A stretch of 34,790 bases of DNA from Chthonomonadales bacterium. Its GTDB lineage: Bacteria; Armatimonadota; Chthonomonadetes; Chthonomonadales; Chthonomonadaceae. Within the stretch, counting starts at the first letter, position 1; each line of letters begins with the position of its first letter. Below, piece by piece: positions 4,642 to 34,790 of this stretch. The notes under the pieces were generated by a model that saw only the letters and a list, made by a program, of their open reading frames with translations, was not told the origin of the DNA and did not search any database. Both the position numbers and the translations under genes were made by a program. The DNA lies in contig JBBQPO010000022.1 in assembly GCA_038217285.1 (NCBI GenBank), forward strand, positions 1-34,790, written 5' to 3'.

Positions 4642-4645
4642 AGGT

Positions 4646-6091
4646 TCAGGCCTTCTCCGGTACCTCGAAGCCCTTGCGGTACTCGCGGGTCAACAGGGCA
4701 TTGGCCTGCGGACTGTTCCGGAACTTCTCGGCACGGGGATCGAACTTCAACTGCGGGCCGACCATATACTTCGTCTCGGCGAGATTGATGCCGTTGTCAG
4801 ACAGGTGCTGTTCGAAACGGCCGAACGTCTCATAGGACTCTTTGTCGTCGCCGAACGCTTTGGTTTTCGGGTTGAACGGCTGCGCGGAGCCCAGGCGATA
4901 GGAGATGTTGCCCAGGTGGCAGAGGGCGCTGGAGAGATGGCCTTCCAGAATTTCGCCGTGCAGGTCCGACGCCTTGCGGGAGTGCACCGCTTCGATGAAG
5001 TTGCCGAAATGGTCGCCGCCGCCGGAGAAGTCCATAATCTTGTTATGACTGTTGTCGAAGACCGCCACTTTGCCGTAGTTGTCGGAAAACGCCACATAGC
5101 CTTCGGTGCCATAGACGATATTACCGATTTTCACGCCCTCGACGCCCTCTGTTTTCAGGCCACGCACCTCGAAAATAAGGTGGGAGTCGCCGTAGTCGAA
5201 GAACGAGATCTCCGTGTTGGGCGTCTGGCCGTCATCGACATACCCGAAGCGGCCGCCGACGCTGATCACACTGTTCGGCAGAGCGTTCTTGTTCAGCGCC
5301 CAGCGGGCGATATCCATCTGGTGAATACCCTGATTGCCGAGATCGCCACTCCCGTAGTCCCAGAACCAGTGCCAGTCGTAGTGGAACTGTCGGCGCTCGA
5401 CCGGCTTCTGAGGCGCAGGGCCCAGCCAGAGGTCGTAGTTGACGGAGGTGGGAGGCATCTGAGGGCCGGTCACTTTGCCGATGCTGCCGCGTGGTTTGAA
5501 GCAGAGCCCGCGTGAGAGCGTCACCTTGCCCAGTTTGCCGGAGTGAATGTAGTCCATCGCGTCCCGACAGGCCTTGTTGGAACGCGACTGGGTTCCGGCC
5601 TGACAGATACGATTCAGTTTGCGAGCCACCTCGACCGTGCGCCGACCTTCCGAGACATTGTGGCTGATGGGCTTCTCGACATAGACGTCTTTCCCATGCT
5701 GCATAGCCCAGATCGCCGCCAGAGAGTGCCAATGGTTGGGAGTGGCGATAGAGACGGCATCAATCTCTTTCATCGCTAGAAGATCCCGGATGTCCTGCAC
5801 CGCTTTGGGTTTGGGCTTGCCGCTCTTCTCGATGAGGTCGGACGCCTTTGGAATGACCGCCGAGTCCGCATCGCAAAGCGCGACGATCTCGACATCGTCA
5901 TGGCCCAGGTAGCCGCGAATATGATCCAGTCCACGCCCATGCACACCGATGACCGCGATATGGATCTTGTCGTTGGCGGCGACACGGCGGCGTGTCGTAC
6001 GGGGAACGGCGACCACCTCTGTGGCGGCCAGACCTGTCATGGCAGTCAGCAGCGACTGCTCCAGAAAACGTCGGCGTGAAATACTATCCAT
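4646..6091 (-). CDS. Gfo/Idh/MocA family oxidoreductase with Tat signal
   Basis: SRRRFL twin-arginine leader; IAVIGVHGRG; DAVSIATPNHWH; KDVYVEKP; NQGIHQMD; RBS GGAGG upstream. Confidence 0.93.
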   Translation of the reverse strand: MDSISRRRFLEQSLLTAMTGLAATEVVAVPRTTRRRVAANDKIHIAVIGVHGRGLDHIRGYLGHDDVEIVALCDADSAVIPKASDLIEKSGKPKPKAVQDIRDLLAMKEIDAVSIATPNHWHSLAAIWAMQHGKDVYVEKPISHNVSEGRRTVEVARKLNRICQAGTQSRSNKACRDAMDYIHSGKLGKVTLSRGLCFKPRGSIGKVTGPQMPPTSVNYDLWLGPAPQKPVERRQFHYDWHWFWDYGSGDLGNQGIHQMDIARWALNKNALPNSVISVGGRFGYVDDGQTPNTEISFFDYGDSHLIFEVRGLKTEGVEGVKIGNIVYGTEGYVAFSDNYGKVAVFDNSHNKIMDFSGGGDHFGNFIEAVHSRKASDLHGEILEGHLSSALCHLGNISYRLGSAQPFNPKTKAFGDDKESYETFGRFEQHLSDNGINLAETKYMVGPQLKFDPRAEKFRNSPQANALLTREYRKGFEVPEKA

Positions 6092-6117
6092 CCTGCATCC
6101 TCCCTGTCAACCGTTGT

Positions 6118-7428
6118 CTACCGCGACGCAAGCGCGCCGTGATCTGACCAGAACTGTTCATAGACTTCCTGCACTCTTCTGGCGGTAAGTTCGATGGTGA
6201 AATGTTCGAGCACCCGCATTCGTCCCGCCGCACCCTTCTCTGCCGAACCCACCGGATCCCGCAGCAGACGCATGATCGCCTCCGCCATCGGAGTGCTCTC
6301 GCCCATCGGAACCAGCCAACCTGTCACTCCGTCCTCCACGATCTCCGGAACGCCGCCGCCGTTGGTCGCCACCACCGGCTTGCCTGCCACCATGCCCTCC
6401 ACCACCACCTGACCGAAAGGCTCCCCGATCGTCGAGGCATGCACCAATATGTCCAACTGACTGATCAGAGCCGGCACATCCTTGCGAAAGCCCGTGAACT
6501 CCACGCAGTCGGAAAGGCCCAGCGTCTCACACAACTGCCGCACCTCCGCCTCGTAGGCGTCTTCCCCGAACATGGCCGATCCGATGATCTGATAGCGTGA
6601 GGTCGGAAACTGCTTGCGCACCTCCGCCGCCGCTGCCAGGAAGATGTGCTGCCCCTTCCACGGGCTCAGACGCCCCACCAGACCGATCACGGGGCTCTGG
6701 CCATAGCCGCGTATCGGCTTGATCTCGGGCACGGCCGCATCCTCGACCCCATCGTGCACGACCCGCACGTAGGTCTTTGTGACGCCGCTATGGATCACCG
6801 CAGCACGCCCCTCGACATCGAGGCAGAGGGTTTTCAGGGTGGCTTCCGAGTTGGTAATGATATAGTTGGGCAGGATACGACACAACCAGCGGAAGCCGGT
6901 AACGGCCGGCTTCGGCAGGTAGTCTGTCGCGATTCGGTCTCGAATATGCCATATCACCGGAATACGGGCCAGGCGACCGGCGATCCCGCCGATCACATCG
7001 GATTTCAACGAGTTCGTATGCAGCAGATCCGCTTTGCGCGCTTTCAGAAAACGCGCCAATCGCCATGCATAGCGTACCACGTTGAGGGCCGCGCCAGGTC
7101 GGAGCAGTCCGCGCGCTCCAAGGCTGTCTTTCCGTGTTTCCGAGACACTTTCGTCCAGGAGGAGGACATGGGTTTCCACGCCTGAATCGACGAGTTTCGC
7201 CAGCAAGGGTCCCTCCGCGCTCAACACCACCACCGGCAGATAACGGCGACGGTCGAGATGCTGGACGAGGTGCAGAAGAGCGATCTCCCCTCCGCTCATC
7301 ATGGCCGTATGATCGAAAAAAACGATGACGCGGGGCAGAGTTTCACTCGCCTCCCGCGCTCCGTCACTCTGCAGGGGAACGCTCTCCCCAGGACCACCCA
7401 TAAACACGGTACTGCAGATAGGTTTCAT
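6118..7428 (-). CDS. Glycosyltransferase family 4
   Basis: SGGE motif, VGRLSPWKGQ and EPFGQVVVEGM (GT4 EX7E motif). Start moved to ATG 7428 (7401 also possible) because a promoter-like motif lies at 7496-7521. Confidence 0.9.
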   Translation of the reverse strand: MKPICSTVFMGGPGESVPLQSDGAREASETLPRVIVFFDHTAMMSGGEIALLHLVQHLDRRRYLPVVVLSAEGPLLAKLVDSGVETHVLLLDESVSETRKDSLGARGLLRPGAALNVVRYAWRLARFLKARKADLLHTNSLKSDVIGGIAGRLARIPVIWHIRDRIATDYLPKPAVTGFRWLCRILPNYIITNSEATLKTLCLDVEGRAAVIHSGVTKTYVRVVHDGVEDAAVPEIKPIRGYGQSPVIGLVGRLSPWKGQHIFLAAAAEVRKQFPTSRYQIIGSAMFGEDAYEAEVRQLCETLGLSDCVEFTGFRKDVPALISQLDILVHASTIGEPFGQVVVEGMVAGKPVVATNGGGVPEIVEDGVTGWLVPMGESTPMAEAIMRLLRDPVGSAEKGAAGRMRVLEHFTIELTARRVQEVYEQFWSDHGALASR

Positions 7429-9923: not shown

Positions 9924-10733
9924 CTATCGCTCGATCAGGAAGCAGAGTTCATTTGGGAACGAGAAGCGCTGTGCGTTCCAGCCCTCGGCCTGCAGGAGTT
10001 CACGAAACCAGCCTTCGTAGTGTTCTGCACGGCCCCTGCCATGCCCTCCCAGACTGCGGGTCGGGAACGAGATCAGGAGATAGCGCGTGCGCAAGCTGCG
10101 AAGCCATCTCTGTGCCGTTCCACGTTCAGTCTGCTCCAGCACCGGCAAAAATTTCAGGATCAGCGCGACCTCCGCTTCGATCTGCGGCGCGGTCACGGCC
10201 ACGTCTTCTGCCTGCGCCTGTCCGGCGATGTCTGAGATGCGGAAAAACTCCTCCAGAAACGCCATCATATCCCCGTAGATGTCGCGGGCGGCGTAATGGA
10301 TTTCCCCTCCTTCCGCCAGCGGCATCCAGGGCAGTGTGAGCGGATTGAGCCCGCAGGCCACATCCAGGACGGACCGGACCGGCGCGATATCCGCGAGCGT
10401 CGTCGTATAAAAGGTTTCCAGATACGGCAGACGTTCCGAAGTAGAGGCGTGTTCCGCCAGGATGCTGCGGGAGACCTCCTTGCGGGCCTCCTGGTCTGCA
10501 GCCTGACGGAGCCCGGCGATCCAGTCTCCGTAACGGGGAGACCTCTCCAGATAGGCTCCTGCCACCTGATGCAGGGTGTTTTTCGTCTCTTTGACCGCCT
10601 CTTTCAGGCTGCGCCGCTTCGCCAACTCCCGCTCCCCCAGTCTCCGAATGAGATCCGGGCAGATGTGCCTATATTTCGCGCTCTCTTGCACCGTCGCCAC
10701 CAGCCGCTCCAGGGGGGACTGCTGCTCCGCCAT
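9924..10733 (-). CDS. 16S rRNA (guanine1405-N7) methyltransferase, ArmA/Rmt/Sgm (FmrO) family
   Basis: KNTLHQVAGAY, HASTSERL, VLDVACGLNPL, LILKFLPVLE, ISFPTRSLGG and NEL motifs; ATG 10733 with a GAGAGG RBS. Confidence 0.88.
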   Translation of the reverse strand: MAEQQSPLERLVATVQESAKYRHICPDLIRRLGERELAKRRSLKEAVKETKNTLHQVAGAYLERSPRYGDWIAGLRQAADQEARKEVSRSILAEHASTSERLPYLETFYTTTLADIAPVRSVLDVACGLNPLTLPWMPLAEGGEIHYAARDIYGDMMAFLEEFFRISDIAGQAQAEDVAVTAPQIEAEVALILKFLPVLEQTERGTAQRWLRSLRTRYLLISFPTRSLGGHGRGRAEHYEGWFRELLQAEGWNAQRFSFPNELCFLIER

Positions 10734-10922
10734 ACCGATCCTCTCTCTTTCCCTGACAGGGCAGGCTCTTGAATACTTTCGAGGCTCTCCTTCGTAACGA
10801 TAACTGTAGACGTGTTCTTGAGGACTCCGGGTGTACAAGCGTGAGAGGATTGTGGTACAATTCGGTCACCGAATCTTGTAAAGCAGGCGGCTCGGTACAG
10901 TAGTTCCTGATCGTCCATCCCG

Positions 10923-20886: not shown

Positions 20887-21615
20887 TTACGGCGTCTCAA
20901 AAAGATCGGAGTAGCGGGTACAGAGTCCGGTCTTCAGGCGCTGCTCGGCGCGGGCCAGCGCCACGCCGACGTGATTGACCGTCATGCTCATTCCCGCCGC
21001 TATCTCCCGGTAACTCTCCGCTCGATAGTGTCTTCGCCGAAGCAGTTCTGAATCGCGATCGGAAAGACCTTCCAGCACACACAAAATGGCTGCCTGTTTT
21101 TCTTTGGAGAGCAACAGCCGCTCTGGATCTATCGCTGTCTCGTCCCATTCCGGGGCGATTTCCACGACCGGGATCGATGACGCACGGGTTCGCAGCGCAT
21201 CGTAGATGAGGTGGCGAACCACAACCCGTAAATACGAGCTGAGCAGATTCCCTTCGCCGCCCTGCCACCGCCGTAGGCGGCGACAGTCCTTCTCCCAGAG
21301 ATGCAGAAACACTTCCTGGAACAGATCCGCGTGATCCTGCTGAGGAACAGACAGATCGTAGAGTTGCCGATGGATCAGCCTCTCGAATCGGCGCACGAAC
21401 CGCCGTGACGCCGCCTGGTTTCCGGCCAGGAGACGGTCGAGCAGCTCTTGATCCGCTTCCGGCCCGCCCACGTATCGGACTCTCGCCACCGGCTCGACGT
21501 TCGGCCGTAGAGAAAGCTCCAGAGCGCCTTCGGCACTCTCATAGCAGCCAGGCGAAAAACTTTCGAAATGCGCGTTTCCTGCCGCAGGATCGCAGGGGGA
21601 AATCGAGATCTGCAT
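20887..21615 (-). CDS. ECF sigma-70 family RNA polymerase sigma factor
   Basis: Region 2 (DLFQEVFLHLW, SYLRVVVRHLIYDALR) and region 4 (LSDRDSELL..HY.AESYREIA.GM.M....VGVALARA); ATG 21615 with a GAGGT RBS. Confidence 0.88.
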   Translation of the reverse strand: MQISISPCDPAAGNAHFESFSPGCYESAEGALELSLRPNVEPVARVRYVGGPEADQELLDRLLAGNQAASRRFVRRFERLIHRQLYDLSVPQQDHADLFQEVFLHLWEKDCRRLRRWQGGEGNLLSSYLRVVVRHLIYDALRTRASSIPVVEIAPEWDETAIDPERLLLSKEKQAAILCVLEGLSDRDSELLRRRHYRAESYREIAAGMSMTVNHVGVALARAEQRLKTGLCTRYSDLFETP

Positions 21616-21735: not shown

Positions 21736-24621
21736 GTGACATCCGAAATGTCCGTCCCTCCCATGACCATCCGGCTCTTCGGAGGGGTAGAGGTCCAGGT
21801 ACAGGGGCAGCCGTTGCCGAAACTGCGCTCGCGGAAAGAGGTTCAGCTTCTGGCGCTGCTGACGCTGGCCCAGGGCCGCACACGACAACGGAGTGCGCTG
21901 GCGCAGACCCTCTGGCCGTTTCCCGATCACTCGGTCGATCAGGCGGCCCGCTACCTGCGGCGCAGCCTGAGCGAACTCAGGAAAGCGTTGGGAACCGAAG
22001 CCTACCGTCTGCCCATTCAGGCGGATCACACGCTGTGCCTGGATCTGGAAGGGGCGGAGGTCGATGTCGTCGCCTTTGACCGCGCGCTGCAGGAGGGAAA
22101 CGTCGCTGCGTTGGAATCCGCCGTCGCACTCTACCGGAGGCCGCTACTGCTCGGGCATACCGAGACCTGGGCGGAGGAGGAGCGGGAGGTCTATCGACAG
22201 CGATGTATGCGGGCGCTCCGGATGCTCAACGGCCATGCGCAGCAGCAGAACGATCTCCCGTCTCAGATCGCCTGGCTGCAGCAGGCGGTTGTGCTGGAAC
22301 CGACAGCGGAAGCGATCCACCGCGCGCTGATGGAGGCACAGACCGACCACGGCGAGAGCGCCGCCGCGTTGCTGGTCTATCAGGAGTTAAGCCGCAGGCT
22401 GCATCGCCTCTGCAATCGCGCCCCGGACCCGCTCACGACGGCGGTCTACCGCAAGATTCGGGACGGGAAACCGTCACCGCCTTTGGCTCCCACGACTCTC
22501 CTCTCTCCGGTTCGCTCTCCCGCAGGATATCTCCCCCATCCCCTGACCTCCATTCTCGGTCGGGAGGAGGAGACGCAGGCCGTACGCCGATGCCTGGAGC
22601 GCGGTCGCCTGGTGACGCTGACGGGCATCGGCGGCGTCGGCAAGACCCGGCTGGCGATTCACGTCGCACGCCTGGCAGCGGCGGAGTACCCCGACGGGAT
22701 CTGGTTCATCGATCTGGCGGATCTCACAAATTCCGAACTGATTCCTGAGAGGATCGCCGGTGTGCTGGAGATCGACCTCAGGACAAACCCAGGGCAGGCT
22801 GCCCTGCGAACCTTGCAGGAGCATCTTGGGCCGCGGCAGGCGCTGTTGATCCTGGACAACTGCGAACATCTGCACGCTGCCTGCGCCGGGTTGGCCCAGG
22901 CACTCTTGAACCGGTGCGGCAGCCTGCGCCTCCTGGCGACCAGCCGACGTCCTCTCGGCCTGATCGGAGAGAATCTCTACCGCGTGCCGCCTCTGCGGAT
23001 GCCCGATCCCTCGACACTAAGCGGCGCGGATGGCGATGTTTGGAAGCAGGTCGATTCCTACCCTGCTGTACAGCTCTTCGCGGAACGCGCTTCCGCCATC
23101 CGCTCCGACTTCTATCTTCATGCCGACAACATCCGCTCTATTGTCCGGATCTGCGCGTACCTGGACGGCATTCCGCTTGCCATTGAGTTGGCGGCGGCCC
23201 GGGTGGGCCTGATGACGGTGGAACAGATCGCCCGGAAACTGGACGACCGTTTTGCTCTTCCAGCGCAGAGTGGCCCAACAACGCCGCCCCGCCAGAAGAC
23301 ACTACGGGCGTTGATCGATTGGAGCTACGATCTGCTGACACCCGCGGAGAGGACGCTAATGATGTGTCTTTCGGTCTTCCGCGGAAGCTGGGACGTCATC
23401 GCGGCCCAGGCGGTCTGCGCAGGAGAAGACCTCGACCCGGATAGGATCGCCCGCGGGATCGAGGGCCTGGTAGACCATTCGCTGGTTCTGGCAGAACCCG
23501 GACGTGAGCAGACACGCTATCGTATGCTGGAGACCGTCCGCCGGTACGGGCAGGATCGGTTGGAACAAACAGCGCTGGAACCGGAAGTCTGGGCGCGCTA
23601 CCGGGATCACTTTCTGACGATGGTCACGCAGTTGCAGCGAGACATGCATGGGCCGGATCAGGTGAAGGCGCTGGCATGGCTGGAGCGGGAAAACGAGAAC
23701 CTCCGCGCCGTGTTGGCGTGCTGCCTGGAACGGGAAGAGGGCGAGTCAGCGCTGCGGTTGGCGGGGCTGCTCTGGCGATTCTGGTATGTGCGTGGCTACT
23801 ATGCGGAGGGCGCCGACTGGCTGGAGAGGTCGCTGGCGGCGGCAGGAGAGACGAAGGACATCGTCCTGCTCAAGGCGCTGACAGGCGCAGGCAATATCGC
23901 GTATGCGACCTCGCGTCTGCCCTATGCACGCCTCTGTTATACACGCAGCCTGGAGATACAACGGGCACGTGGCGACAGGCGCGGCGTTGCCGCGGCGCTG
24001 AGCAGTCTGGCCAATGTGGCGCAGGAAGAGGGAGACTACGCTGGTGCTCGCTCCCTCTTCGAGAGTGCGCTGGAGGTTTTTCGCAGCCTGGAGCAGAGTC
24101 AGGACATCGCCCGAACGCTGGGCAATCTTGCGCTTGTCTATGCCGCCGAAGGGGACTATGATCCGGCTCTTCCTCTGCACCACGAGAGCATAGCGTTGTT
24201 TCGTCGGAGCGGAGATGGGCACAATCTGGCGCACAGCGTGAACCTGCTGGCCGATACCCTGCTTTCCCGGGGCGACCTGGCGGAGGCGGAGGCATGCCTC
24301 CAGGAGAGCCTGGGGCTCAGCCTCGCTCAGGAGAGCCGGGCAGAGCAGGCACACAGCCTGATCTACCTGCGTAAGCTGACCGTAAAGCAGGAGCGCTGGC
24401 AAGAGGCAACCCTCCTCCTTGGAGCGGAGATGGCTCTGCGTGACGAGATGCAGATGCCTTTGCCCCCGCAGGAGGCGATAGAAGCCCATTCTTATCGAGA
24501 GCAAATCGAAGCCGGCATGGGCCGGGAAGAGTTTCAAGCGGCCTATCAGCAGGGCCGGGGCATGTCCCCGGCCGCGATAGCAGCATTCCTGTATCCCACG
24601 CTGCCGAACATGGATCCCTAA
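21736..24621 (+). CDS. AfsR/SARP-type regulator: wHTH-BTAD-NB-ARC(STAND)-TPR
   Basis: IRLFGG/LLALL/LW/LSELRKAL (SARP wHTH); DVVAF, LYRRPLL and EP..E..HRALM (BTAD); Walker A GIGGVGKT; LLILDNCEHL; GIPLAIELAAAR; C-terminal TPRs; GGAGGT RBS. Confidence 0.93.
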   Translation: MTSEMSVPPMTIRLFGGVEVQVQGQPLPKLRSRKEVQLLALLTLAQGRTRQRSALAQTLWPFPDHSVDQAARYLRRSLSELRKALGTEAYRLPIQADHTLCLDLEGAEVDVVAFDRALQEGNVAALESAVALYRRPLLLGHTETWAEEEREVYRQRCMRALRMLNGHAQQQNDLPSQIAWLQQAVVLEPTAEAIHRALMEAQTDHGESAAALLVYQELSRRLHRLCNRAPDPLTTAVYRKIRDGKPSPPLAPTTLLSPVRSPAGYLPHPLTSILGREEETQAVRRCLERGRLVTLTGIGGVGKTRLAIHVARLAAAEYPDGIWFIDLADLTNSELIPERIAGVLEIDLRTNPGQAALRTLQEHLGPRQALLILDNCEHLHAACAGLAQALLNRCGSLRLLATSRRPLGLIGENLYRVPPLRMPDPSTLSGADGDVWKQVDSYPAVQLFAERASAIRSDFYLHADNIRSIVRICAYLDGIPLAIELAAARVGLMTVEQIARKLDDRFALPAQSGPTTPPRQKTLRALIDWSYDLLTPAERTLMMCLSVFRGSWDVIAAQAVCAGEDLDPDRIARGIEGLVDHSLVLAEPGREQTRYRMLETVRRYGQDRLEQTALEPEVWARYRDHFLTMVTQLQRDMHGPDQVKALAWLERENENLRAVLACCLEREEGESALRLAGLLWRFWYVRGYYAEGADWLERSLAAAGETKDIVLLKALTGAGNIAYATSRLPYARLCYTRSLEIQRARGDRRGVAAALSSLANVAQEEGDYAGARSLFESALEVFRSLEQSQDIARTLGNLALVYAAEGDYDPALPLHHESIALFRRSGDGHNLAHSVNLLADTLLSRGDLAEAEACLQESLGLSLAQESRAEQAHSLIYLRKLTVKQERWQEATLLLGAEMALRDEMQMPLPPQEAIEAHSYREQIEAGMGREEFQAAYQQGRGMSPAAIAAFLYPTLPNMDP

Positions 24622-25259: not shown

Positions 25260-25300
25260 ACGGCGGTCCTCACGAATTCAATGTTCGTGAGGACCGCTGT
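25260..25300. terminator. Hairpin between convergent genes (probable terminator)
   Basis: Perfect 14-bp stem gcggtcctcacgaa / ttcgtgaggaccgc with a 7-nt loop. Confidence 0.7.
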
Positions 25301-25323: not shown

Positions 25324-26757
25324 TTAAAAGAAGGTTTTGCCAAAACTCATGCCGACAAATCCCTGCTTGTTGGCGGCTCTCCCCACAGAAACAGTCAACT
25401 CTGTAAAGTTGCCAAGACGCTGGCGCAAAAATACGCCGTAGGTGTCGTTGAGTTGCAGACTGTTTCGAAAGTTATATTCGACGCCGGACTGCGTTGTCCA
25501 ACGACGGATATCCCCCTTCGGCTTTCCCAGCGGGCCAGGCAAAAGGCGCGAAACGCGGTTTTGCCAGTAGACGGCAACTCCAGACCGTATCGTGGCAGCG
25601 CCGGAACCCGTTGTAGGAGTATATTGTAGCGCCTGCACGCCAACCAGAAACGTGATCCCATTATAGGGTTTCCGCGGATCGATAGGAAACAGTTTTGAAA
25701 CGCTCAATCCTGCGGTGGTAAAGGCTCCTACAGTATCGATGTGTCTGTAACTGAACTGTACCGAGGACCGCGTTTGTGACTGGATCTGCGCCACCCGGCG
25801 ATTAGCCTCCGATTGGCTCGCAATAAATGCATTCGTCGGACTGTTTTCCACGATGGCGGCGGCCAGAACCGAAGGAGACTGTTTTCCCGCAGAGAGCAAC
25901 GATTGAAAAACGGAGAGTGAATGGACCAGCGCGGGGCGTTGCGGAGACAGATCGAAACGAAACGAGGCCGCGTAGCCATTCAGATCCGAAAGGTAGGCCT
26001 GCGCTGCGACATCGAAGCCACCCAGGCCACTACTGTAGATTACTTCCGGTGTATAGACGGTCGGCCCGCCTCCCGTTCGGACCTGGATACCGGCATAGTA
26101 GCCGGAAGCGACGAGGTCGGGAGGAAACAGATTTTCGATTCCCTCCTCTTCCTGCGCGGTAAACGCCGTTGAATTTTGCAACGATGCTGGTAGGCCGATA
26201 TAGACGATGTAGTCACGAAGTAACAACCGATTGAGAATGAAGACGCCTCGATTGACAGGATTTTGATTTAGTACTGCCTGCGTATCCGGCTGTAAGACCC
26301 CGGACTTACGGAAAGCCTGGCCCTCCATGGTATCCAAATTAAAAAGAGTAGGACTGTCCAGTGCCTCCTTTCGTTTATTGTCATCAGCCAAATTTTTCAG
26401 ATGCAGGAGAATCTGCAAGGGATCCGTCGTCGTGGAGAGGGTTAGCTGAGACTTAGCCAGCGCCGTTGTCAACGCACCAAACTCAAGTTTGAAATAATCA
26501 TTGGAGTGTACGTAAGCGTTAATCTGGTTTGCCCGGTCTAAGCCGGAATAGAGCGAACTAGCCATCGGGCTCTTGTCGTCGATCGCGAGGAGGGCGGCAG
26601 ACAGATTGATGGCGTTGTTAAGGCCCGTGGAGACGGAGGTTTTCGTGGGGTCTTTCTGTAAATTGGGAATGCTTTCTTGAGCGAAAGCAGAAGCAGAAAG
26701 AAAGCAGCTCAGCAAACAGGCAAACATGAGCAACGCAAGCAATCGGATGGTACGCAT
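25324..26757 (-). CDS. Exported protein with helical N-part and probable C-terminal beta-barrel
   Basis: Signal peptide ending AFA-Q; AAAGGA RBS at ATG 26757; alternating amphipathic strands in the C-half, ending GFVGMSFGKTFF (terminal Phe typical of OM barrels). Confidence 0.65.
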   Translation of the reverse strand: MRTIRLLALLMFACLLSCFLSASAFAQESIPNLQKDPTKTSVSTGLNNAINLSAALLAIDDKSPMASSLYSGLDRANQINAYVHSNDYFKLEFGALTTALAKSQLTLSTTTDPLQILLHLKNLADDNKRKEALDSPTLFNLDTMEGQAFRKSGVLQPDTQAVLNQNPVNRGVFILNRLLLRDYIVYIGLPASLQNSTAFTAQEEEGIENLFPPDLVASGYYAGIQVRTGGGPTVYTPEVIYSSGLGGFDVAAQAYLSDLNGYAASFRFDLSPQRPALVHSLSVFQSLLSAGKQSPSVLAAAIVENSPTNAFIASQSEANRRVAQIQSQTRSSVQFSYRHIDTVGAFTTAGLSVSKLFPIDPRKPYNGITFLVGVQALQYTPTTGSGAATIRSGVAVYWQNRVSRLLPGPLGKPKGDIRRWTTQSGVEYNFRNSLQLNDTYGVFLRQRLGNFTELTVSVGRAANKQGFVGMSFGKTFF

Positions 26758-26868
26758 CGGAAAGTTCCTTTCGGGTAGCGAGGCGGGGATGGGTTCGCTC
26801 CGAAGCGTCCGGGCTGCGGTCACGGGGTCTTGCGAAAACAGATCGGCGTCAGAACCGACTAGCGGGCA

Positions 26869-29800
26869 TTATACCTCATTTTGTGAATCGATTTGCACAA
26901 GACATTCGTGGACAATGCGCGATGTTTTGTGGTCGGGGCCGTAAAAATGGAGATAGATTTCCCGAGCCTGCCAATAGTGTGCCCTGGCGGCGGCGCGCTG
27001 CTCCAGCTTCTCTTCCGCCCGGCCGATGTAGTAGTAGCAGGACGCGACATCCGGGTGACAGGCTTCGTAGGTTGCCAGATTGATCTCCAGGGCCTGAAGG
27101 TGCAGATTCAGAGCGTCTGCAGCGTTTCCCTGCGCCAGGGTCACGCGGCCGATATTGTTCATCCGGATAGCCGTTTTCGGATGTTTGGCTCCGAAAAGCT
27201 CCTGATCGATCTCCAGGGCGCGCTCCATATTGGCGCGTGCGGAAGCGAGGTTTCCAAACGCTTCGTGCAGCGTCCCAATGTTATTGGCGATGCTGGCGTA
27301 GGTGGCGCTGTTCCTGTGTGGGCAGAGGAATAGCGCCCTTCCATAGTGCGTCAGCGCTTCCTCCAGTTCGCCGCTATATTTAAGGATATAGCCTATATCG
27401 TTGTAATAGTCCGCGAGTTGGGGTGCGTCCGATTCCCAGAGCGTCTCTGCGATGCCGAGCGCCGCGCGTCCCTTCTCCAGAGCCGCCGCCGAATCGCCCC
27501 GATGCAGGACTGTAAGCGCCAGATGCATTGTCACGCGCGCGGTCCGCTCACTGACCGCGCCATCTCGCTCCTGGAACATCTGCAGACAGCGTTCATAGCA
27601 GTCCTGCGACGTCGCCAAATCGGCGTGCTCGAACATATAGCCGCCGATCTCAAACAGCAGATCACAGAGGGTTTTGCGGAGATCGTATCTTTCGCAGAGT
27701 TCTGCTGCCGCGCGGCAGTGGTCTATCTCCCCACGCACTTCCTGCCAGTCCAGACGCTCATTCGCCAAGAGTAATCGCTGCGTCAGGAGGTGTGCAGTCC
27801 GCTCGATATGTCCGTTCCGGCTTCCTCCCGCCTGATCCAGAGCGAACTCCCGCACCAGTTCATGCAGGTCGATCCATCGGTCATCATGCCGAGTGATCAG
27901 GCAGTAGGCTTCCAGGTCCGCCAGCGCCTCGGTGAACGCCATGCGCGCGGTCAGACCGGACGCTTGCTGCAGCACGTCGAGAGAGATTCCCTGTGCGGCA
28001 AAGCAGGAGGCGGTCTGCAGAAGGTGCGCGGCGGTGGCATCGAGCTCCTGATAAGAGAGATTCAGGGTATCGAAGAGGCTGCCGTCGTGACCGGTCATAT
28101 TGAAAAAGCGTTTGCGGGCCTGCGCCAGCGTCTCCAGGGGATCGGCGGTCAGACGCTCCCGATACTCCACAAAGCTGCCATGCCGCTGCACATGATGGGC
28201 TACCAGCGCCAGGGCGAGCGGCAGGCCGCCGGTCCGGGCGACGATCGCGCGGGCCGCCGCCTGCTCTTCCGGACTCTCCGCCACCCGGCGTGTCTGGAGA
28301 AGCTGCAGCGCGGCGTCCTCCTCCAGAGCCGCCACCTCGACCCTGTGAAAGCGGGGATACGCCAGATACCCTTCCCGGGTCGTCGCCACAATCCGGCAGG
28401 AACCGACCGTCGGAAGCAGCGAGAAATCTGTCCGGCCTGTCAGATTATTGAAGATCAACAGCGCAGGGTCCAACAACTTCTGCAGATGATCCCTCACCTG
28501 TTCCGCAGGATTATCGATCCCCGGCGGTATCTGAAAAAACCGGATCAGGCCGGCATATCCGGCAAGGACGGAGGTGTTGTCGGCGGCCTCCAGCCAGAAG
28601 ACCCCTCCCGGATAGTCCGCCAGAGAACGATGCGCGTACTCCAGCGCCAGTTGCGTCTTCCCTATCCCTGTCATCCCCACCAGGGCGACCGGCCTGCTCT
28701 CCGAGGCCTGGAGCAAACCCCGAATCCTCCCCATCGCTCCTTCCCTGCCCACGAAGTCGGGGTTGGGCGGGTAAGGCAGATTGGTCGGTGTCGGGGTTTC
28801 GATGTCCAGCAGTCGGGAGATGTCTCCGGCCAGGAAGAGCGCCGGCGTTCCCCAGTCCGCCGCCGTACCACTGAGGCACTGACGGGCCTGGCACAGGGCT
28901 TCCTCCAGCGGAGCAGAAGCCACGAGCGCCCCGTAGAACGTGCGGGAAAAGAGCACGGCGACCTTGTCGCGCCAGGGAAGCTGCATCGCGACTGCGGCCG
29001 GAATGCCCTTCTGCACGAGAGCAGCCCCCAGCGCCGCCGTGTGGCAGGCCGATAGGACTACCAGACGGCAAGCCGGATAGGAGAGCCAGGCCCCAAGCGT
29101 CTCTGCGGACACTTCCTTCTCCGTCTGTTTTTGATCTCCCTCCAGAATGAGCCGTCCTGCTCCCTGTCGGCTATCCCCATGACCGATAAAGTGAAGTACA
29201 TGGGGCTGCCAGGAGTCCAGCGCTTTCTCCAGACCGGAGGGGGTCGCATGAGATAACATCTGGGCCTTGATACGCCGACACTCCGGCGCTCCCTGGAGCA
29301 GCGCCAACATTCCGTTCGCCTCCTGCTCTGCCGAGGCCAGCGCCGGATAGGAGGGAGAACAGGGATCGGACCAGACGATCAGCACCCGCAGGGTATCACT
29401 CGGTACAGGCGAGACGGCGACCGGTGTAGGACTGCGGTGGATCAGATGGACGCGCGGGTTCAGACAGAGGTATCCCGGCGCTTCCTGAAGCGCCGGTGCA
29501 GCCTCCAGATAGAGGTACTCCCATGGCAGCGCCCCCAACACAGGATCGGCGATGGTCAGCCGTAGATGGATCGGCGCGGTCGGATCGGGGTGGCGCAGTA
29601 GCGCAGCGCAGAGGGGAGTCAGCACGTCGGGAGGCAGAAGCGTGGCGGTCAACTCCCGCCCCAGGGCCTCCAGCAGAGCGGTATCGACGCCGTGCTCGCC
29701 CTGGGTGTGCAACGGGCGCAGATAGAGCTTTTCCAAACGGCGCCGATCCGGATGCGGCACGATGGCCTCTCCCAACACCTTTCCGGTAGAGAGGGAGGTC

Positions 29801-29874
29801 AGAACGATGTGAACCTCCGACACCAATGCCACGGAGGCGGCTTCCAGCAGAAAGTCGTGCGCCGATGGAGACAA
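26869..29874 (-). CDS. CHAT (caspase-like, clan CD) protease - NB-ARC - TPR protein
   Basis: LPWEYL, LHFIGHG (His) and VVLSACHT (Cys) dyad, DWGTP; FVGRE, Walker A GMTGIGKT, GLPLAL, LHELVREFA; kinesin-light-chain-like TPRs (G.KHP.TA...NN.G). Confidence 0.92.
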   Translation of the reverse strand: MSPSAHDFLLEAASVALVSEVHIVLTSLSTGKVLGEAIVPHPDRRRLEKLYLRPLHTQGEHGVDTALLEALGRELTATLLPPDVLTPLCAALLRHPDPTAPIHLRLTIADPVLGALPWEYLYLEAAPALQEAPGYLCLNPRVHLIHRSPTPVAVSPVPSDTLRVLIVWSDPCSPSYPALASAEQEANGMLALLQGAPECRRIKAQMLSHATPSGLEKALDSWQPHVLHFIGHGDSRQGAGRLILEGDQKQTEKEVSAETLGAWLSYPACRLVVLSACHTAALGAALVQKGIPAAVAMQLPWRDKVAVLFSRTFYGALVASAPLEEALCQARQCLSGTAADWGTPALFLAGDISRLLDIETPTPTNLPYPPNPDFVGREGAMGRIRGLLQASESRPVALVGMTGIGKTQLALEYAHRSLADYPGGVFWLEAADNTSVLAGYAGLIRFFQIPPGIDNPAEQVRDHLQKLLDPALLIFNNLTGRTDFSLLPTVGSCRIVATTREGYLAYPRFHRVEVAALEEDAALQLLQTRRVAESPEEQAAARAIVARTGGLPLALALVAHHVQRHGSFVEYRERLTADPLETLAQARKRFFNMTGHDGSLFDTLNLSYQELDATAAHLLQTASCFAAQGISLDVLQQASGLTARMAFTEALADLEAYCLITRHDDRWIDLHELVREFALDQAGGSRNGHIERTAHLLTQRLLLANERLDWQEVRGEIDHCRAAAELCERYDLRKTLCDLLFEIGGYMFEHADLATSQDCYERCLQMFQERDGAVSERTARVTMHLALTVLHRGDSAAALEKGRAALGIAETLWESDAPQLADYYNDIGYILKYSGELEEALTHYGRALFLCPHRNSATYASIANNIGTLHEAFGNLASARANMERALEIDQELFGAKHPKTAIRMNNIGRVTLAQGNAADALNLHLQALEINLATYEACHPDVASCYYYIGRAEEKLEQRAAARAHYWQAREIYLHFYGPDHKTSRIVHECLVQIDSQNEV

Positions 29875-29913
29875 GGATGGTTCCGCCTTCTACGATGGGT
29901 GGTTGGGCGTCGG

Positions 29914-31281
29914 TCAGGACACGTTGGGACTACCGGCTTCCGAAGGAGCCAGACGCGCCCGCAGCAGAGTCAGGGATGCCAGGGCGCCATCCGTGCGTCC
30001 AGGGCAAGAGATAGACAGCGTGCGCGCCGCCTCCCCCCAATCGTCTATCGGCCAGGAATCCAGGTGCTGCCACTCCTGCGGGGCGACAGCAATATCCAGC
30101 AGCAGACGGTAGCCTTCCGCATACGCGCTCCGCGTGATCGCTGGCAGGCGCACAGCGATCTGCAGGCGTCCGTTTACCGCGTGCGGAGGCGGTCCTACCA
30201 CTTCGAGCAGTGCAGGCGGAAGGGAACTCTCGCGGCCCTGTATGGTGAGAATATTCGCCGCAAGCAGCCCAACGACCTCCTCGTTCTCTGTGGGCGGCTC
30301 TGCTGAGGCGATCAGAAACCCCTCTGCAAGCAGACTTTGGGAGAAGCGTCGGAGAGACGGAACGGGCAGCGTGAACCGTTCGGGCGGTCCCAACAGGACG
30401 ACCAGTCCACGAGCCGGGAAGGCAGAGGCTTGCGGCCCGATCCCCACACCGATCTCGGATACCGTCCAGGAAACCTGCTCTCCTGTCAGTGTGGACGAGG
30501 CGCAGAGAAAGATTTCGCCTCCTGCCGGCAGCGCCAGATACGCGGTCCATCCGGAAAAGTCGGTTGCGGGCGTGTCCGCGAAACCAACGAATGTGGCCGA
30601 TACATGCAAGGTTCCGGCAGCGTCGATGCGGGTCTCTTGCAGTCGGCACTCCCCTGCCCATGGCCCGTATACGGATAGCGTTGCGGAACTATCGCGGGCA
30701 AGTGCGGGAAGAGGTCGTCGCAACTGCGTCTGCACCTGTGCTCCAAAGGCGAGGAGGGTGATCCAGAGTGCCTGCGCCTGTGCTCTGCCCCCCCTGGCCC
30801 GCCTCCTGATCTCCGCCCAGGAGTCCGTCCCGGGAGCGCTCGGGGCGATCTCTTCCGCGGCGAACGCTTGCAGCGGCTGCGACGCCAGCGATAGCCAGGC
30901 CTGAGCCGTCTCCGCCTCTCGGGAACTCTCCCCTCTGATCGCCGCCGTCTGGTTCGACGAGAGGGACCATTGGCTCCGAGAAGAGGCGGAAATGTTCTGT
31001 TCGATCACAGCCATTTCGAGCCAGGAGAGGCTCTGCAGACGATCAAGGAGGAGGCGAACCTCGCGGACAGCTCTGCGTGTCTCGGAGGACGCTGTCAGGG
31101 CCTGCTCCACCTGTCTTGCCTCCGTTGCGGGCAAGGCGTTGCAGAGATAGCGGACCAGAACGGAGGTGCTCGGAGCGGGGGGGCGAACGTTGCGCTGTGG
31201 CCCATGCTGCTTCAGAAAAGCTTCGATCAGAGCCTCGGTTCCGTCCGAAAGCGGGAGCGGGTCGATATCGCCGTCACTCAT
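29914..31281 (-). CDS. Hypothetical protein with anti-sigma-like N-terminus
   Basis: LVRYLCNALPATEARQVEQAL..S...RRAVREVR resembles a zinc-less anti-sigma domain; overlaps the sigma gene stop by 8 bp; GGAGG RBS. Confidence 0.6.
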   Translation of the reverse strand: MSDGDIDPLPLSDGTEALIEAFLKQHGPQRNVRPPAPSTSVLVRYLCNALPATEARQVEQALTASSETRRAVREVRLLLDRLQSLSWLEMAVIEQNISASSRSQWSLSSNQTAAIRGESSREAETAQAWLSLASQPLQAFAAEEIAPSAPGTDSWAEIRRRARGGRAQAQALWITLLAFGAQVQTQLRRPLPALARDSSATLSVYGPWAGECRLQETRIDAAGTLHVSATFVGFADTPATDFSGWTAYLALPAGGEIFLCASSTLTGEQVSWTVSEIGVGIGPQASAFPARGLVVLLGPPERFTLPVPSLRRFSQSLLAEGFLIASAEPPTENEEVVGLLAANILTIQGRESSLPPALLEVVGPPPHAVNGRLQIAVRLPAITRSAYAEGYRLLLDIAVAPQEWQHLDSWPIDDWGEAARTLSISCPGRTDGALASLTLLRARLAPSEAGSPNVS

Positions 31282-32455
31282 CGTAGCCTCCTCCGCTCTG
31301 ATCCCACCAGCACTTGACGAGCCGCTTCCGCAACTGACCGCCGCTCAGCCAGGTGTTCAGCATGTTGGTGTTGAGTTTGTAGGCGACCTGATCGGAGGCG
31401 GGCTGGATACGCTCATAGACATCGAAAAGCGGAAGCTCCTCACAGTACCAGTACTGGAATGCCATTCGCTTCCATAGGCCGGAGTCGCCCAGAATACTCT
31501 CGGCGTCTACCCGTTCGTCCTCCAAGCGTTCCAACAGATCCGTCATCACAGAGGTGAACGGCAGCGCGGCCTTGATCGCCGCGATCCTCTCTTGAATCTG
31601 CGCTTCGGTGTAGCCCCATTCTCGACACGGCGACTGCGTGAGAACGGCCGAGGCAGGCGCGTTGTCCCGATACCGCAACAGGATCAGGGCCACCAGTCCC
31701 CACGAGAGCTCTCCCAGCGCCGACTCTTCCGGTGGCAAGACGAGCGCTCGGCTCCACAGCCCGTTCAGAATGTCCGGAGATATCTGGTCCACGTCGATCC
31801 CAAATAGGCAGGCGAGCAGACGTTGGCGCTCCATACAGAGTTGATGGTATGCGAGCAGCCGGACAACCCCAGGATCTCGCACCCAGGCCAGCACCCGATC
31901 CGGCGTCATTTCCGGCTCCTCCGCCGGGGGGCAGCCAAGCAGTCTGGGGATCTCCGTAGACGAGAAGCCTTCCAGGTAGTACATCTGCGCCACCAGCAAC
32001 TGGCGTTCGTATGTGGCGGCGGAGAAGGAGGGATCCAGGCCCAGCCAGAAGGCATCTGCGTAGTGAAAAATCTCCCCCAACAGGATAGCCGTCTGCACCT
32101 GTTCTACAAAACCGCGCTCCGCGAAAGGCACGTCGAACGTATCAAAATCTTCCAGTGGGATCGTCGCAAAGCGACCTTTGCGGCGTAGGATATCGACAAA
32201 GCAGGTCTTTACCGTTCGGTATAACCAGGCTCTGCCGGCCTGTTCGTTCGGCCAGACATTGACGTCACTGAGTCGGGATAGTTTGACAAACGCGTCCTGC
32301 ACGGCATCTTCGGCATCCTGCGTGCCGGCCTGACATTTCGCGACCAGATAGCGCTCCAGAGGGGCGCGAAGAGACCGACAGAGAGCCTCAAGAGCCTCTG
32401 CTTTCGCATGATCTTCGGGCAGGGACAGTCTTTTCCAGGCAAGCGCTTCGTTCAC
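31274..32455 (-). CDS. ECF-type sigma factor with long C-terminal extension (393 aa)
   Basis: Region 2 (AEDAVQDAFVKL, RAWLYRTV....VDILRRK) and region 4-like YYLEGFSSTEIPRLLG; AAGGGG RBS before GTG. Confidence 0.8.
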   Translation of the reverse strand: MNEALAWKRLSLPEDHAKAEALEALCRSLRAPLERYLVAKCQAGTQDAEDAVQDAFVKLSRLSDVNVWPNEQAGRAWLYRTVKTCFVDILRRKGRFATIPLEDFDTFDVPFAERGFVEQVQTAILLGEIFHYADAFWLGLDPSFSAATYERQLLVAQMYYLEGFSSTEIPRLLGCPPAEEPEMTPDRVLAWVRDPGVVRLLAYHQLCMERQRLLACLFGIDVDQISPDILNGLWSRALVLPPEESALGELSWGLVALILLRYRDNAPASAVLTQSPCREWGYTEAQIQERIAAIKAALPFTSVMTDLLERLEDERVDAESILGDSGLWKRMAFQYWYCEELPLFDVYERIQPASDQVAYKLNTNMLNTWLSGGQLRKRLVKCWWDQSGGGYDE

Positions 32456-32476
32456 AACAACCCCTTTTTAACAAAC

Positions 32477-34291
32477 TTAGTTCTCAGGCACCTTTATGAA
32501 GCGGTCATTGAACAGATGCTCCAGAGCGCCTACGGCCAGATGCACGCCAAGATGGACAAGTGGCGACACCTGAAACCAGTGATTGAGCAGAAGTTCGCCG
32601 CGGGCCTCCGCCAGCCTGACAATCGCTGCCCGTTCCTGCTCTGTCAGCGCTGCATCCCTGGCTGCGATGGGATCGACCTTCATGAACTCCGTATCAGGGA
32701 ACCAGCCGGAGTTCGCCAGCTCTAGCGGCGTCAAGTTATGAGGCGGAATGCGCGTCGTTTGTGGAGAAGGCGCATCCTCGGCGAAGAGCGTCTGCACAAA
32801 CGCCTCGATCTCATCGGGCCTCTTGCCTACATCTGTGCAGTGATCCGTGAGCCACAACATCAGCCAATGCACCAGCCACTGCCGGGCTTCGTGTTGGCCG
32901 GTAATGAAGTCTGCTTCGCGGAAGTCCTTGCGAAGAAAACCCCCGAAGTGGCCTCCGAAGGCGCCGGCAAGTCGTTTGGAGGAGGTCAGCTCATGGGGGA
33001 TGCGCTGCAAGGTGATCGCGGTCTTGTCGTTCAGTCCGACCGCCTCCCTGATCTTTGTCTTCAGGGCTTCCGCAGCCTCTGCTGGCAGTCCCAGGGCGTC
33101 CAAATCGGCGAGGGCCGCATCCAGGGCGCGAATCTGATCGTTGGTCTGCGCGACCGTTTTGAAGTCGCCATAGAGGGCGCTGTTAAAGTAGGCGGAGAGG
33201 ATTTTGCCCAGCATTGCGGTCGGCAGCGTAGAGTGGGCGTGGGCGGTCGTGGGCATGGTGAGCGCCTGTTCCACATCTGCAGGCAGTTGCGGCTCGGGCT
33301 CGATGATGATGAAACTGCGTCCCACCTGCCCTGCGCTCTCCGCACTGTTCGGGTTCCGCGAGGGATACCGTTCGTTCAGGTCGTTCACCGCGTCGATGCA
33401 TTTGCCGATAGGCTCGTTGTTGAACAGCCCTCCATCAACGAACTGAAACGTGGCCTCACTCGGAAGCGCGGTCTGTTGTTGAAGGCCGGCCTGTCCACTC
33501 TTGTCCGGCAGGGTGCCGTCGATGACAGCCTGCCGGAACTTTACGTATTCGGGATACTGTTCGAGGTTCCGCTGCTGGCGCTGACTGGGAAAGGCGATGG
33601 GAAAGGCGCTGGAGGCACGGGCTGCGGCGACGGCGGCATCCCAGGTCGCTTCGGGAGCCGGAGCCTCGCCTGCTTGCGCGACCGGCAGGACCATGCGATC
33701 TGCGATCATGCGGATCGTGCTGCCTTCGATGAGGAAGGGAATGTAGTCCCGATAGTCGAGAGCGTACAGTTGGGTGTTGGTCTGAGCGTGATGTTCATCC
33801 TTGCGTTTGAAATCGATCACGAACGGAATCCCGTCCAGATTGGTCATGGTGATCCAGAGGGCAATGGGTTCCTGGGGCTGTGGCGGTGCAGGCGGCGGGA
33901 TCTGCAGCGCCTCATGGACGATCTTGTCTACCACCGCCCCTGTGAAAAGCGAGTCCTCCACCTCCTTTTTACCGGAAGGACCGAGGAGGTTGTGTATCTC
34001 CAGCAGGTCGATCCAACAGGCGCGCATCCGCGCTTCCAGCGTGTCCGGCGTGGCGCCAGAGCCGATGGCCTGTGCCAGTATCAGCCCTGTAATGGAGCCA
34101 GCCGAGGCGCCTGCGATGGCATCGATCCTCACCTGCGCCTTGCCTACAATGTCTTGATGCGCGTTAAATTCGGCAAGGTCGCGATAGAGTTGACAGAGTA
34201 CCCCGGCCTCATACGAACCAAGAGCGACGCCCCCGGAGATAGAAAGGCCAAAGCGGTGGGTGCGTATCAGGTTGGTCGAAACTTCGGTCAT
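32477..34291 (-). CDS. Patatin-like phospholipase
   Basis: Gly-rich GLSISGGVALGSYEAG, nucleophile elbow GASAG, ASSAFP and catalytic DGG; ATG 34291 with an AAGGGG RBS. Confidence 0.9.
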   Translation of the reverse strand: MTEVSTNLIRTHRFGLSISGGVALGSYEAGVLCQLYRDLAEFNAHQDIVGKAQVRIDAIAGASAGSITGLILAQAIGSGATPDTLEARMRACWIDLLEIHNLLGPSGKKEVEDSLFTGAVVDKIVHEALQIPPPAPPQPQEPIALWITMTNLDGIPFVIDFKRKDEHHAQTNTQLYALDYRDYIPFLIEGSTIRMIADRMVLPVAQAGEAPAPEATWDAAVAAARASSAFPIAFPSQRQQRNLEQYPEYVKFRQAVIDGTLPDKSGQAGLQQQTALPSEATFQFVDGGLFNNEPIGKCIDAVNDLNERYPSRNPNSAESAGQVGRSFIIIEPEPQLPADVEQALTMPTTAHAHSTLPTAMLGKILSAYFNSALYGDFKTVAQTNDQIRALDAALADLDALGLPAEAAEALKTKIREAVGLNDKTAITLQRIPHELTSSKRLAGAFGGHFGGFLRKDFREADFITGQHEARQWLVHWLMLWLTDHCTDVGKRPDEIEAFVQTLFAEDAPSPQTTRIPPHNLTPLELANSGWFPDTEFMKVDPIAARDAALTEQERAAIVRLAEARGELLLNHWFQVSPLVHLGVHLAVGALEHLFNDRFIKVPEN

Positions 34292-34399
34292 TGGATTCGC
34301 CCCTTGAAAATGTGTCGAGGTGGACATGCCCTCGGGTTGGCAGGAAAGCCGTTGTCGGATCCGGACGAAAAACGTCGGCAGCAAGCATTTCGACGTGCC

Positions 34400-34453
34400 G
34401 CATCGAATCTCCTATGCAGGGCATAGGAGATTCGACGCTGTCAGGCTGACAGC
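34400..34453. promoter_or_regulatory. Hairpin plus adjacent 17-bp palindrome upstream of patatin operon
   Basis: tcgaatctcctatgc-agg-gcataggagattcga (perfect 15-bp IR, 34403-34435) and gctgtcag-g-ctgacagc (34437-34453). Confidence 0.55.
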
Positions 34454-34790
34454 AGGAATCAACTCTATAATAGTTCAATTGTCTCCCGACGAATGTCGTC
34501 TTGCTGTAGGTTGGAATGGGGTACGCTGCAGGAGGGATAACATGTTTGTCGTGTGGGGTTCGCGATCGCGTCAGGAGGATGGAGGAGTCGTAGCGGACTG
34601 GTGCGACGCCTGTCACGCCCCCCATTTCCATCGGCTTGTCCACTACTATATTGACGTTTAGACTATTTTCTCCCGTCCGAGACGGCGCTCCCAGAAGATT
34701 TGAGATCGGAAACCCTAACTCTAATGAGATGCTAGGAATTAATGGCAGGTTGGGTATAGCCCGTTCGCTGATCCAAAGCGCCATTAATTC

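Follow-up and report, generated by a model that had tools for sequence, protein, structure and literature searches.

A conserved gene module for a sigma factor, an anti-sigma-like protein and a CHAT-NB-ARC-TPR protein in Armatimonadota: a candidate protease-controlled transcriptional switch

Craspase, CalpL/CalpT/CalpS and DdvA/DdvS follow a common logic, in which a protease acts on an anti-sigma factor and the anti-sigma factor on a sigma factor, as described in the portions of PMC11506125 and bioRxiv 10.1101/2023.06.23.546230 that deal with them. Here we describe a locus of a Chthonomonadales bacterium (Armatimonadota, a little-studied phylum; assembly GCA_038217285.1, contig JBBQPO010000022.1) that encodes an extended extracytoplasmic function (ECF)-like sigma factor, a soluble anti-sigma-like protein of 455 amino acids (aa) and a CHAT-NB-ARC-TPR protein. 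The reading proposed for it, to which we give an even chance, is a CRISPR (clustered regularly interspaced short palindromic repeats)-independent switch, in which a protease gated by a STAND (signal transduction ATPase with numerous domains) module controls the anti-sigma protein and, through it, the sigma factor. The window analysed, 34,790 nucleotides (nt), is one entire 34.8-kb contig of a 6.2-Mb assembly that is 95% complete.

Five groups of described systems come close to this locus. In type III-E craspase (Cas7-11, TPR-CHAT Csx29, Csx30, Csx31 and CASP-sigma/RpoE), the gene of a TPR-bearing CHAT protein also adjoins those of an ECF-type sigma factor and of a soluble protein that binds sigma, and cleavage of this partner releases the sigma factor (relevant sections of PMC11506125 and bioRxiv 10.1101/2023.06.23.546230; see also PMC10028731). 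DdvA/DdvS of Myxococcus xanthus likewise brings TPR-CHAT together with an anti-sigma domain and an ECF sigma factor; according to the passages of PMC11506125 on this system, DdvA consists of one transmembrane polypeptide in which the anti-sigma domain binds zinc and the TPR-CHAT region is periplasmic, with no NTPase, and its CHAT domain has been proposed as the site-1 protease that frees the sigma factor. CalpL/CalpT/CalpS and SAVED-CHAT/PCaspase/PCc-sigma direct a signal-activated protease against an anti-sigma or sigma factor encoded next to it, and differ from the present locus in responding to cyclic oligoadenylates through SAVED, in belonging to type III CRISPR or cyclic-oligonucleotide-based antiphage signalling system (CBASS) loci and in using Lon-type proteases or two-step caspase cascades (bioRxiv 10.1101/2023.06.23.546230, sections on these systems). 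The neighbourhoods of EACC2-caspase, ECF sigma and DUF1822 (Kaur et al. 2021, PMC8195603, in the part devoted to them) couple a caspase-fold protease to an ECF sigma factor, with a proposed transcriptional output. Finally, antiviral STAND proteases (Avs and other bacterial proteins resembling nucleotide-binding leucine-rich repeat receptors, NLRs) have an N-terminal protease, a STAND NTPase, a C-terminal repeat sensor and a substrate encoded next door; the substrates given in the passages of PMC12642450 and PMC13581612 on STAND proteases are latent toxins (metallo-beta-lactamase hydrolase, alpha/beta-hydrolase, Pepco, EACC1), and those passages mention no sigma or anti-sigma partner.

The present locus departs from each of these. 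The trigger of craspase is the RNA-guided Cas7-11, whereas here an NB-ARC STAND NTPase is fused to the protease. No CRISPR array and no Rfam match were found on the contig, and Pfam scans of its open reading frames (ORFs) gave no Cas protein, in agreement with the original prediction that the arrangement is CRISPR-independent. No Csx31 equivalent was seen, a gene for an outer-membrane beta-barrel protein is added, and the 455-aa family has no match among PDB sequences and no Csx30-like match among the Foldseek matches listed. Unlike DdvA, the anti-sigma protein is predicted from its sequence to be separate, soluble and zinc-less, and the protease to be cytoplasmic and STAND-gated. In contrast to the EACC2-caspase system, none of the five proteins of the locus matches DUF1822 of Pfam, the protease is fused to NB-ARC-TPR and a dedicated anti-sigma-like family is present. 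In contrast to the antiviral STAND proteases, whose known substrates are latent toxins, the protease here adjoins a sigma/anti-sigma pair, and its context is no defence island. No system of PADLOC-DB v2 was matched. Matches were obtained at the domain level only (SAVED_CHAT 8e-11, mad8 0.002, phospholipase effector 3e-5), and the sigma factor, the 455-aa protein and the barrel protein gave none. A full-text literature search found no STAND-CHAT protein paired with a sigma/anti-sigma pair, although supplementary tables may hold a mention; the words CHAT, NB-ARC, caspase and patatin do not occur in the main text of the ECF classification paper (PMC7826278), and CHAT genes near ECF54 are noted in a review. 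In PADLOC-DB v2 and the papers searched, the arrangement corresponds to no named system, as had been supposed. What is new is the NLR-like trigger and the anti-sigma family, within the known protease, anti-sigma, sigma theme.

The minus strand of the window holds five co-oriented ORFs across positions 25324-34384. In the direction of transcription they encode a patatin-like phospholipase (discussed below), the sigma factor (31274-32455, 393 aa), the 455-aa protein (29914-31281), the CHAT-NB-ARC-TPR protein (26869-29874, 1001 aa) and the barrel protein (25324-26757, 477 aa from the ATG at 26757; the ORF extends to 26823, 499 aa). The intergenic spacing is 21, -8, 39 and 111 nt when the starts at 34291 (patatin) and 26757 are used, and these values coincide with those of the original prediction. 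In contigs from other sequencing runs, 1 nt is missing at 34370 in one strain and three indels lie within 26782-26837; the stretches around these positions are therefore unlikely to be coding, which favours the shorter gene models. A terminator-like hairpin (25263-25297, minus strand; 14-bp stem with nine G-C pairs) lies 27 nt past the stop of the barrel gene and is likely to be where the transcription unit ends.

Conservation of this arrangement was surveyed in a sample of 401 Armatimonadota genomes. With the 455-aa protein as seed, 13 of the 401 genomes matched, own genome counted, and 12 other loci were mapped. A CHAT-NB-ARC-TPR homologue was located immediately 3' of the 455-aa homologue in 10 of these 12 loci; locus L021 has one about 6 kb away, and L031, a doubtful 2.7-kb match, has none. 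A sigma homologue was found immediately 5' in all ten loci with upstream DNA, and a barrel homologue came next in eight. L031 (genome G100, E 8.6e-4, internal TGA) was discarded as a member of the family. The second survey was seeded with the CHAT domain, which is unbiased toward the anti-sigma gene, and matched 25 of the 401 genomes at E <= 1e-15. Counts were made, from profile searches and earlier maps, on the 18 best loci (E <= 1.2e-30, 17 genomes), 16 of which have a sigma and/or anti-sigma-like gene within about 10 kb, nearly always immediately 5' and co-oriented. The barrel gene lies 3' of the protease gene in 11 of the 14 assessable module loci. A metagenome scan seeded with a four-sequence protease alignment yielded 80 loci; the anti-sigma-like gene stands immediately 5' in 10 of the 11 loci that have a close protease relative and upstream DNA, two of these ten (L048 and L050) being duplicates of genome loci. 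A single 65-residue match of the 455-aa protein to another contig (L032) was rejected as spurious. In L021 (genome G306) the CHAT-STAND/barrel pair is separated from the sigma/anti-sigma pair by the gene of a second, different TPR-CHAT protein (3234-6170, 978 aa, CHAT at its C-terminus). In L029 (genome G098) a DNA-methyltransferase-like ORF with an SPPY motif (1035-2459) replaces the barrel gene, and the protease homologue has a degenerate P-loop and lacks its N-terminal ~100 residues.

The order of the four genes other than patatin is the same in several families of the phylum, at protein identities of 25-37%, so that the possibility that gene order would be conserved nowhere did not materialise. 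The starts of the sigma and anti-sigma genes, and those of the anti-sigma and protease genes, overlap or almost abut. The flanks vary by family (short-chain dehydrogenase/aldolase, major facilitator superfamily transporter, GntR/LacI regulator, QueF, ankyrin, transposase fragment), and the genes therefore travel as a unit. Trees of the sigma, anti-sigma-like and protease proteins have well-supported clades common to all three, and the fast-evolving anti-sigma tree disagrees at depth with the other two. From the surveys, the flanks and the trees together, the conserved core consists of the genes for the sigma factor, the anti-sigma-like protein and the CHAT-STAND protein, with the barrel gene as a frequent fourth member. 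The arrangement exceeds chance for four of the five genes; it does not for patatin. Of the co-occurrence originally expected, the sigma, 455-aa and CHAT-NB-ARC-TPR part holds and the patatin part does not, since patatin adjoins none of the surveyed modules. All occurrences of the module known so far are in Armatimonadota or on metagenome contigs that bear no label. The small size and poor sampling of the family would speak for mere neighbours with no common function, but this explanation is hardly credible against an order that persists at such low identity while the flanks change, and against a sigma/anti-sigma fusion protein and a high-scoring complex model (both described below).

The 455-aa protein, whose gene start overlaps the sigma gene by 8 nt, has no match in Pfam, NCBIfam, PADLOC or PDB sequences. 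A profile search of the PDB gave two matches at E 2, which were dismissed as chance, and a search of the ESM Atlas gave scores of only 0.78, zf-HC2 among them, which were taken as a lead at most. With a profile of ten relatives, 230 representatives were collected at E <= 1e-3 among 1.84 billion proteins (163 of them reaching 1e-10 and 78 reaching 1e-30); all named members sampled are annotated 'hypothetical protein', and one homologue is labelled Armatimonadota. The AlphaFold2 (AF2) model (predicted local distance difference test, pLDDT, 75; predicted template modelling score 0.75) consists of an N-terminal helical domain (residues ~13-187) and two beta-sandwiches (~200-300 and ~335-446), and the whole model had just generic two-Ig-domain Foldseek matches of low template modelling (TM) score. 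No 19-residue window reaches transmembrane hydrophobicity. Residues 41-87 align in register with zf-HC2 anti-sigma domains (hhalign, probability 57%, E 1e-4, 47 columns), the partner alignment covering the N-terminal parts of 12 out of 17 canonical zf-HC2 anti-sigma factors in this genome. A search of the genome with PF13490 retrieves those 17 other genes, and the 455-aa protein is not among them.

Residue conservation was counted on 117 full-length representatives (330-500 aa) out of 150 listed. The most conserved residue of the family is R69, present in 91% of them. A second conserved element, AxxRG (A193 in 89%, R196 in 88%, Gly at position 197 in 72%), reads A193-L-A-R196-D197 in this copy (codons 30691-30705, minus strand). 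It lies in the linker that joins the helical domain to the first beta-sandwich, where residues 194-198 have pLDDT below 50 in the AF2 model, and it is our candidate for the site of protease cleavage. Separase, a protease of the CHAT clade, cuts after Arg (PMC11506125, in its passage on separase), which is a precedent for the candidate cut after R196.

Modelling of the complex between the sigma factor and the 455-aa protein, proposed with the original prediction, gave scores of 0.78, 0.78 and 0.79 in three runs, versus 0.01 for the best control. Of 80 solved complexes, 58 attain the mark set for this tool, compared with 2 of 110 mismatched pairs. The runs share at least 85% of their contacts, with a partner pLDDT of 76. 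In the modelled interface, anti-sigma residues 6-76 lie on the sigma linker and the sigma-4-like region (residues 103-130 and 147-182) and on parts of the C-terminal extension, with R69 at the centre. One natural representative of 706 aa is a fusion of sigma and anti-sigma; it is known from protein only and may be a sequencing artefact. A search for longer fused forms found none, which is weak evidence. The register with zf-HC2 domains and the complex model together lend moderate support to the anti-sigma-like nature first suggested for the 455-aa protein.

In the sigma factor, Pfam Sigma70_r2 (PF04542) was detected at 2e-6 (27.8 bits, cut-off 24), and it matches eight of nine relatives; TIGR02937 covers residues 24-177 with 27.5 bits, which is under its 42.9 cut-off. 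A divergent sigma-4-like helix-turn-helix occupies residues ~147-182, and the alignment of relatives reveals conservation of a C-terminal extension, about 200 aa long; the sigma-4-like motif recurs within it. An extension of this kind would also suit another scheme, in which the sigma factor itself is the target of the protease, which might for instance remove an auto-inhibitory C-terminal extension, and the 455-aa protein is an adaptor or inhibitor. PCaspase is a precedent, for it cleaves the sigma factor PCc-sigma in vitro (bioRxiv 10.1101/2023.06.23.546230, in the section on it). We consider this scheme improbable, given that the conserved linear motif in a disordered linker belongs to the 455-aa protein and not to the sigma factor, and that the modelled interface is of the anti-sigma type.

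The protease candidate matches Pfam CHAT (PF12770, 2e-27), NB-ARC (PF00931, 2e-10) and TPR_12 (5e-28), and NCBIfam FxSxx_TPR over residues 370-986 (9e-61, under the cut-off of that family). The catalytic dyad, His232 (codon 29179-29181) and Cys277 (codon 29044-29046), is invariant in nine of nine aligned relatives; it was described as intact from the start, as were the patatin motifs, and both descriptions hold. The Walker A motif GMTGIGKT (residues 400-407, 28654-28677) is conserved among the relatives. A 25-nt tandem duplication (1.9 copies, 29043-29089) lies in the CHAT-coding region around the Cys277 codon and leaves the frame intact. The genome carries the module in a single copy and has several other NB-ARC/TPR proteins elsewhere.

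The mechanism that we propose would operate as follows. The soluble 455-aa protein would hold the sigma factor inactive, its zinc-less N-terminal helices covering the sigma-4-like region, as in the complex model. By analogy with STAND proteins, CHAT-NB-ARC-TPR would be a cytoplasmic receptor of NLR type, in which a ligand on the TPRs and nucleotide-dependent assembly of NB-ARC activate a caspase-like protease. The protease would then cut the anti-sigma protein, the likeliest site being C-terminal to the conserved Arg (R196) of the AxxRG linker. Such a cut would part the sigma-binding domain from the two beta-sandwiches and free the sigma factor to redirect transcription, and the outer-membrane barrel would be an accessory partner or an output. 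In its most specific form the proposal is held more tentatively, as possible but somewhat short of probable: an apoptosome-like CHAT-NB-ARC-TPR protein senses a cytoplasmic ligand, cuts a dedicated soluble anti-sigma protein, from a fold family not recognised before, between the Arg and Gly of AxxRG and releases an ECF-like sigma factor with tandem sigma-4-like repeats. It would do so independently of CRISPR and cyclic nucleotides, as a stand-alone counterpart to craspase and CalpL, and possibly for an inducible immune or envelope programme of Armatimonadota, which would make it the first NLR-type receptor with a protease output wired to transcription.

Several observations weigh against the proposed switch. 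The sigma-4 region is only weakly detected (Sigma70_r4_2 in two of nine relatives, E 0.004). In the hhalign register, the 455-aa protein has A, S and T where the HxxxCxxC zinc ligands would be, and its anti-sigma homology, judged from such alignments, is only moderately supported. Because sigma/anti-sigma complexes have already been solved, the pass of the predicted complex may partly reflect likeness to them, and its score could stem from what the model has learnt of such pairs. The acidic residue of Walker B is missing from the protease: position 476 (codon 28447-28449, sequence LLIFNNL) is Asn for Asp in this copy and in L045, and most other relatives have hhhhDN. The Asn is inherited and no sequencing error, because L045, the closest relative, has the same residue; to judge from the motif, it may alter nucleotide handling. 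L045, the metagenome locus with the closest protease (66% identity), has no sigma or anti-sigma gene within 10 kb upstream; it keeps the barrel gene (40% identity), with genes for a BNR protein and a glycoside hydrolase family 9 cellulase upstream. Genomes G248 and G183 account for the two of the 18 best CHAT loci that have no sigma/anti-sigma pair. From these three cases it follows that the protease can occur without the pair nearby. As an observation apart, the Walker B Asn is shared by L045, alone among the close relatives in having no sigma/anti-sigma pair next to it. Furthermore, no shared ECF-type promoter motif was found upstream of the sigma or barrel genes; the upstream regions of the sigma genes have merely sigma-70-like -10 boxes, at some loci.

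In a rival reading, the sigma/anti-sigma pair only regulates the genes downstream of it, the CHAT-STAND protein and the barrel are an effector pair with another substrate, and the anti-sigma protein is inactivated by an unrelated signal. Protease and barrel without a nearby pair in L045, the protease gene alone in G248 and G183, and the hairpin past the barrel gene, with which all the genes may form one operon, would fit such an arrangement. Against it speak an anti-sigma protein that has neither a membrane anchor nor a recognisable sensor, no other candidate input being encoded nearby, and the translational coupling of the anti-sigma and protease genes at several loci. That no ECF-type promoter was found before the protease or barrel genes also counts against it. 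Nevertheless, this same lack of an ECF-type promoter, together with the occurrence of the protease without the pair in L045, G248 and G183, keeps the alternative alive, and we rate it as unlikely.

The patatin gene (32477-34291, minus strand; longer ORF to 34384) encodes a phospholipase with a Pfam Patatin match (PF01734, 7e-16) and intact motifs: the Gly-rich GGVALG at residue 51, the GxSxG serine motif GASAG at 92 and the DG[AG] aspartate motif DGG at 317. Its co-orientation 21 nt 5' of the sigma gene, its intact catalytic motifs in this strain and the weak PADLOC matches to phospholipase effectors (3e-5) are what would favour a five-gene system, with the lipase as a further target that the active protease sets free to damage membranes in anti-phage defence or cell death. 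The surveys argue in the other direction. No patatin gene was found at any of the 12 genome loci or 80 metagenome loci. Orthologues are present in 14 of the 401 genomes; two of these, G127 and G275, carry both the module and a patatin orthologue, on separate contigs, and the surroundings of the orthologues, out to 1.5 kb, hold no sigma or CHAT gene. From another run, a 13.2-kb contig of a roughly 97%-identical strain (about 2-5% differences) is longer than the window by 4782 bases: the additional DNA sits between window positions 32469 and 32479, exactly at the strain-variable 21-nt junction of the patatin and sigma genes (32456-32476). The similarity of this contig to the window stops at 34413, about 120 nt 5' of the patatin gene. 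A contig from a third run likewise breaks at 32479. DNA almost identical to that of the window is present in sediment and glacier habitats. By survey counts, orthologue positions and strain contigs, the patatin gene therefore behaves as a separate block beside a rearrangement-prone point. Patatin is a strain-specific upstream neighbour and no conserved member of the module, and a five-gene system, whose flanks moreover carry no defence genes, is very improbable. Neither conservation nor genomic context supports the lipolytic arm of the original prediction, and its first reading is corrected: the lipase adjoins the system without being one of its effectors.

Upstream of the patatin gene, an ORF at 34209-34790 (minus strand) was considered as a gene and, having no Pfam family and no relatives, was treated as non-coding. 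A perfect hairpin with an 11-bp stem (34405-34433, minus strand) lies about 115 nt 5' of the patatin start, and the similarity of the other strain's contig ends inside it, at 34413. A consensus scan found no minus-strand promoter before the patatin or sigma genes.

Pfam has no family for the barrel protein. Its model (mean pLDDT 65) shows an outer-membrane barrel in the C-terminal half, preceded by a poorly modelled helical region, and the top Foldseek matches of the barrel are porins (KdgM, TM 0.78; NanC, 0.62; Omp33, 0.55). The protein has a signal-peptide-like N-terminus and a C-terminal Phe. A dyad search 5' of the barrel genes gave nothing beyond shuffled controls.

The flanks of the module contain no defence genes; the flanking genes are of housekeeping type and variable, and form no defence island. 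Conservation and genomic context thus give no support for a role in defence. Convergent to the module, a gene at 21736-24621 (plus strand) encodes a 961-aa Trans_reg_C/BTAD-AAA-TPR protein, a STAND regulator resembling SARP/AfsR, and in two other genomes from the same family (L026, 33% identity across 850 aa; L137) the module is likewise flanked by homologues of this regulator. Divergent from the gene of the 961-aa protein lies a second ECF sigma gene, this one ordinary, with sigma-2 and sigma-4 (~20887-21460, minus strand). Further away, the window encodes a homologue of the FmrO-family 16S rRNA methyltransferases (9924-10838, minus strand; Pfam 2e-49) among housekeeping-type genes, and an 890-aa protein (1969-4641, minus strand) with a weak cytochrome c554-like match and C-terminal TPRs.

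Sigma factors released by a protease have so far been tied to CRISPR, to cyclic-nucleotide signalling or to membrane anti-sigma factors, and STAND or NLR-like proteases to substrates of the toxin type. If the proposed switch is correct, the response of NLR-like receptors in bacteria can be transcriptional, either instead of cell death or ahead of it. The locus would also provide a compact three-protein system for studying how the assembly of NB-ARC switches on a caspase-like protease, and it would add a new anti-sigma family with a directly testable candidate cleavage motif.

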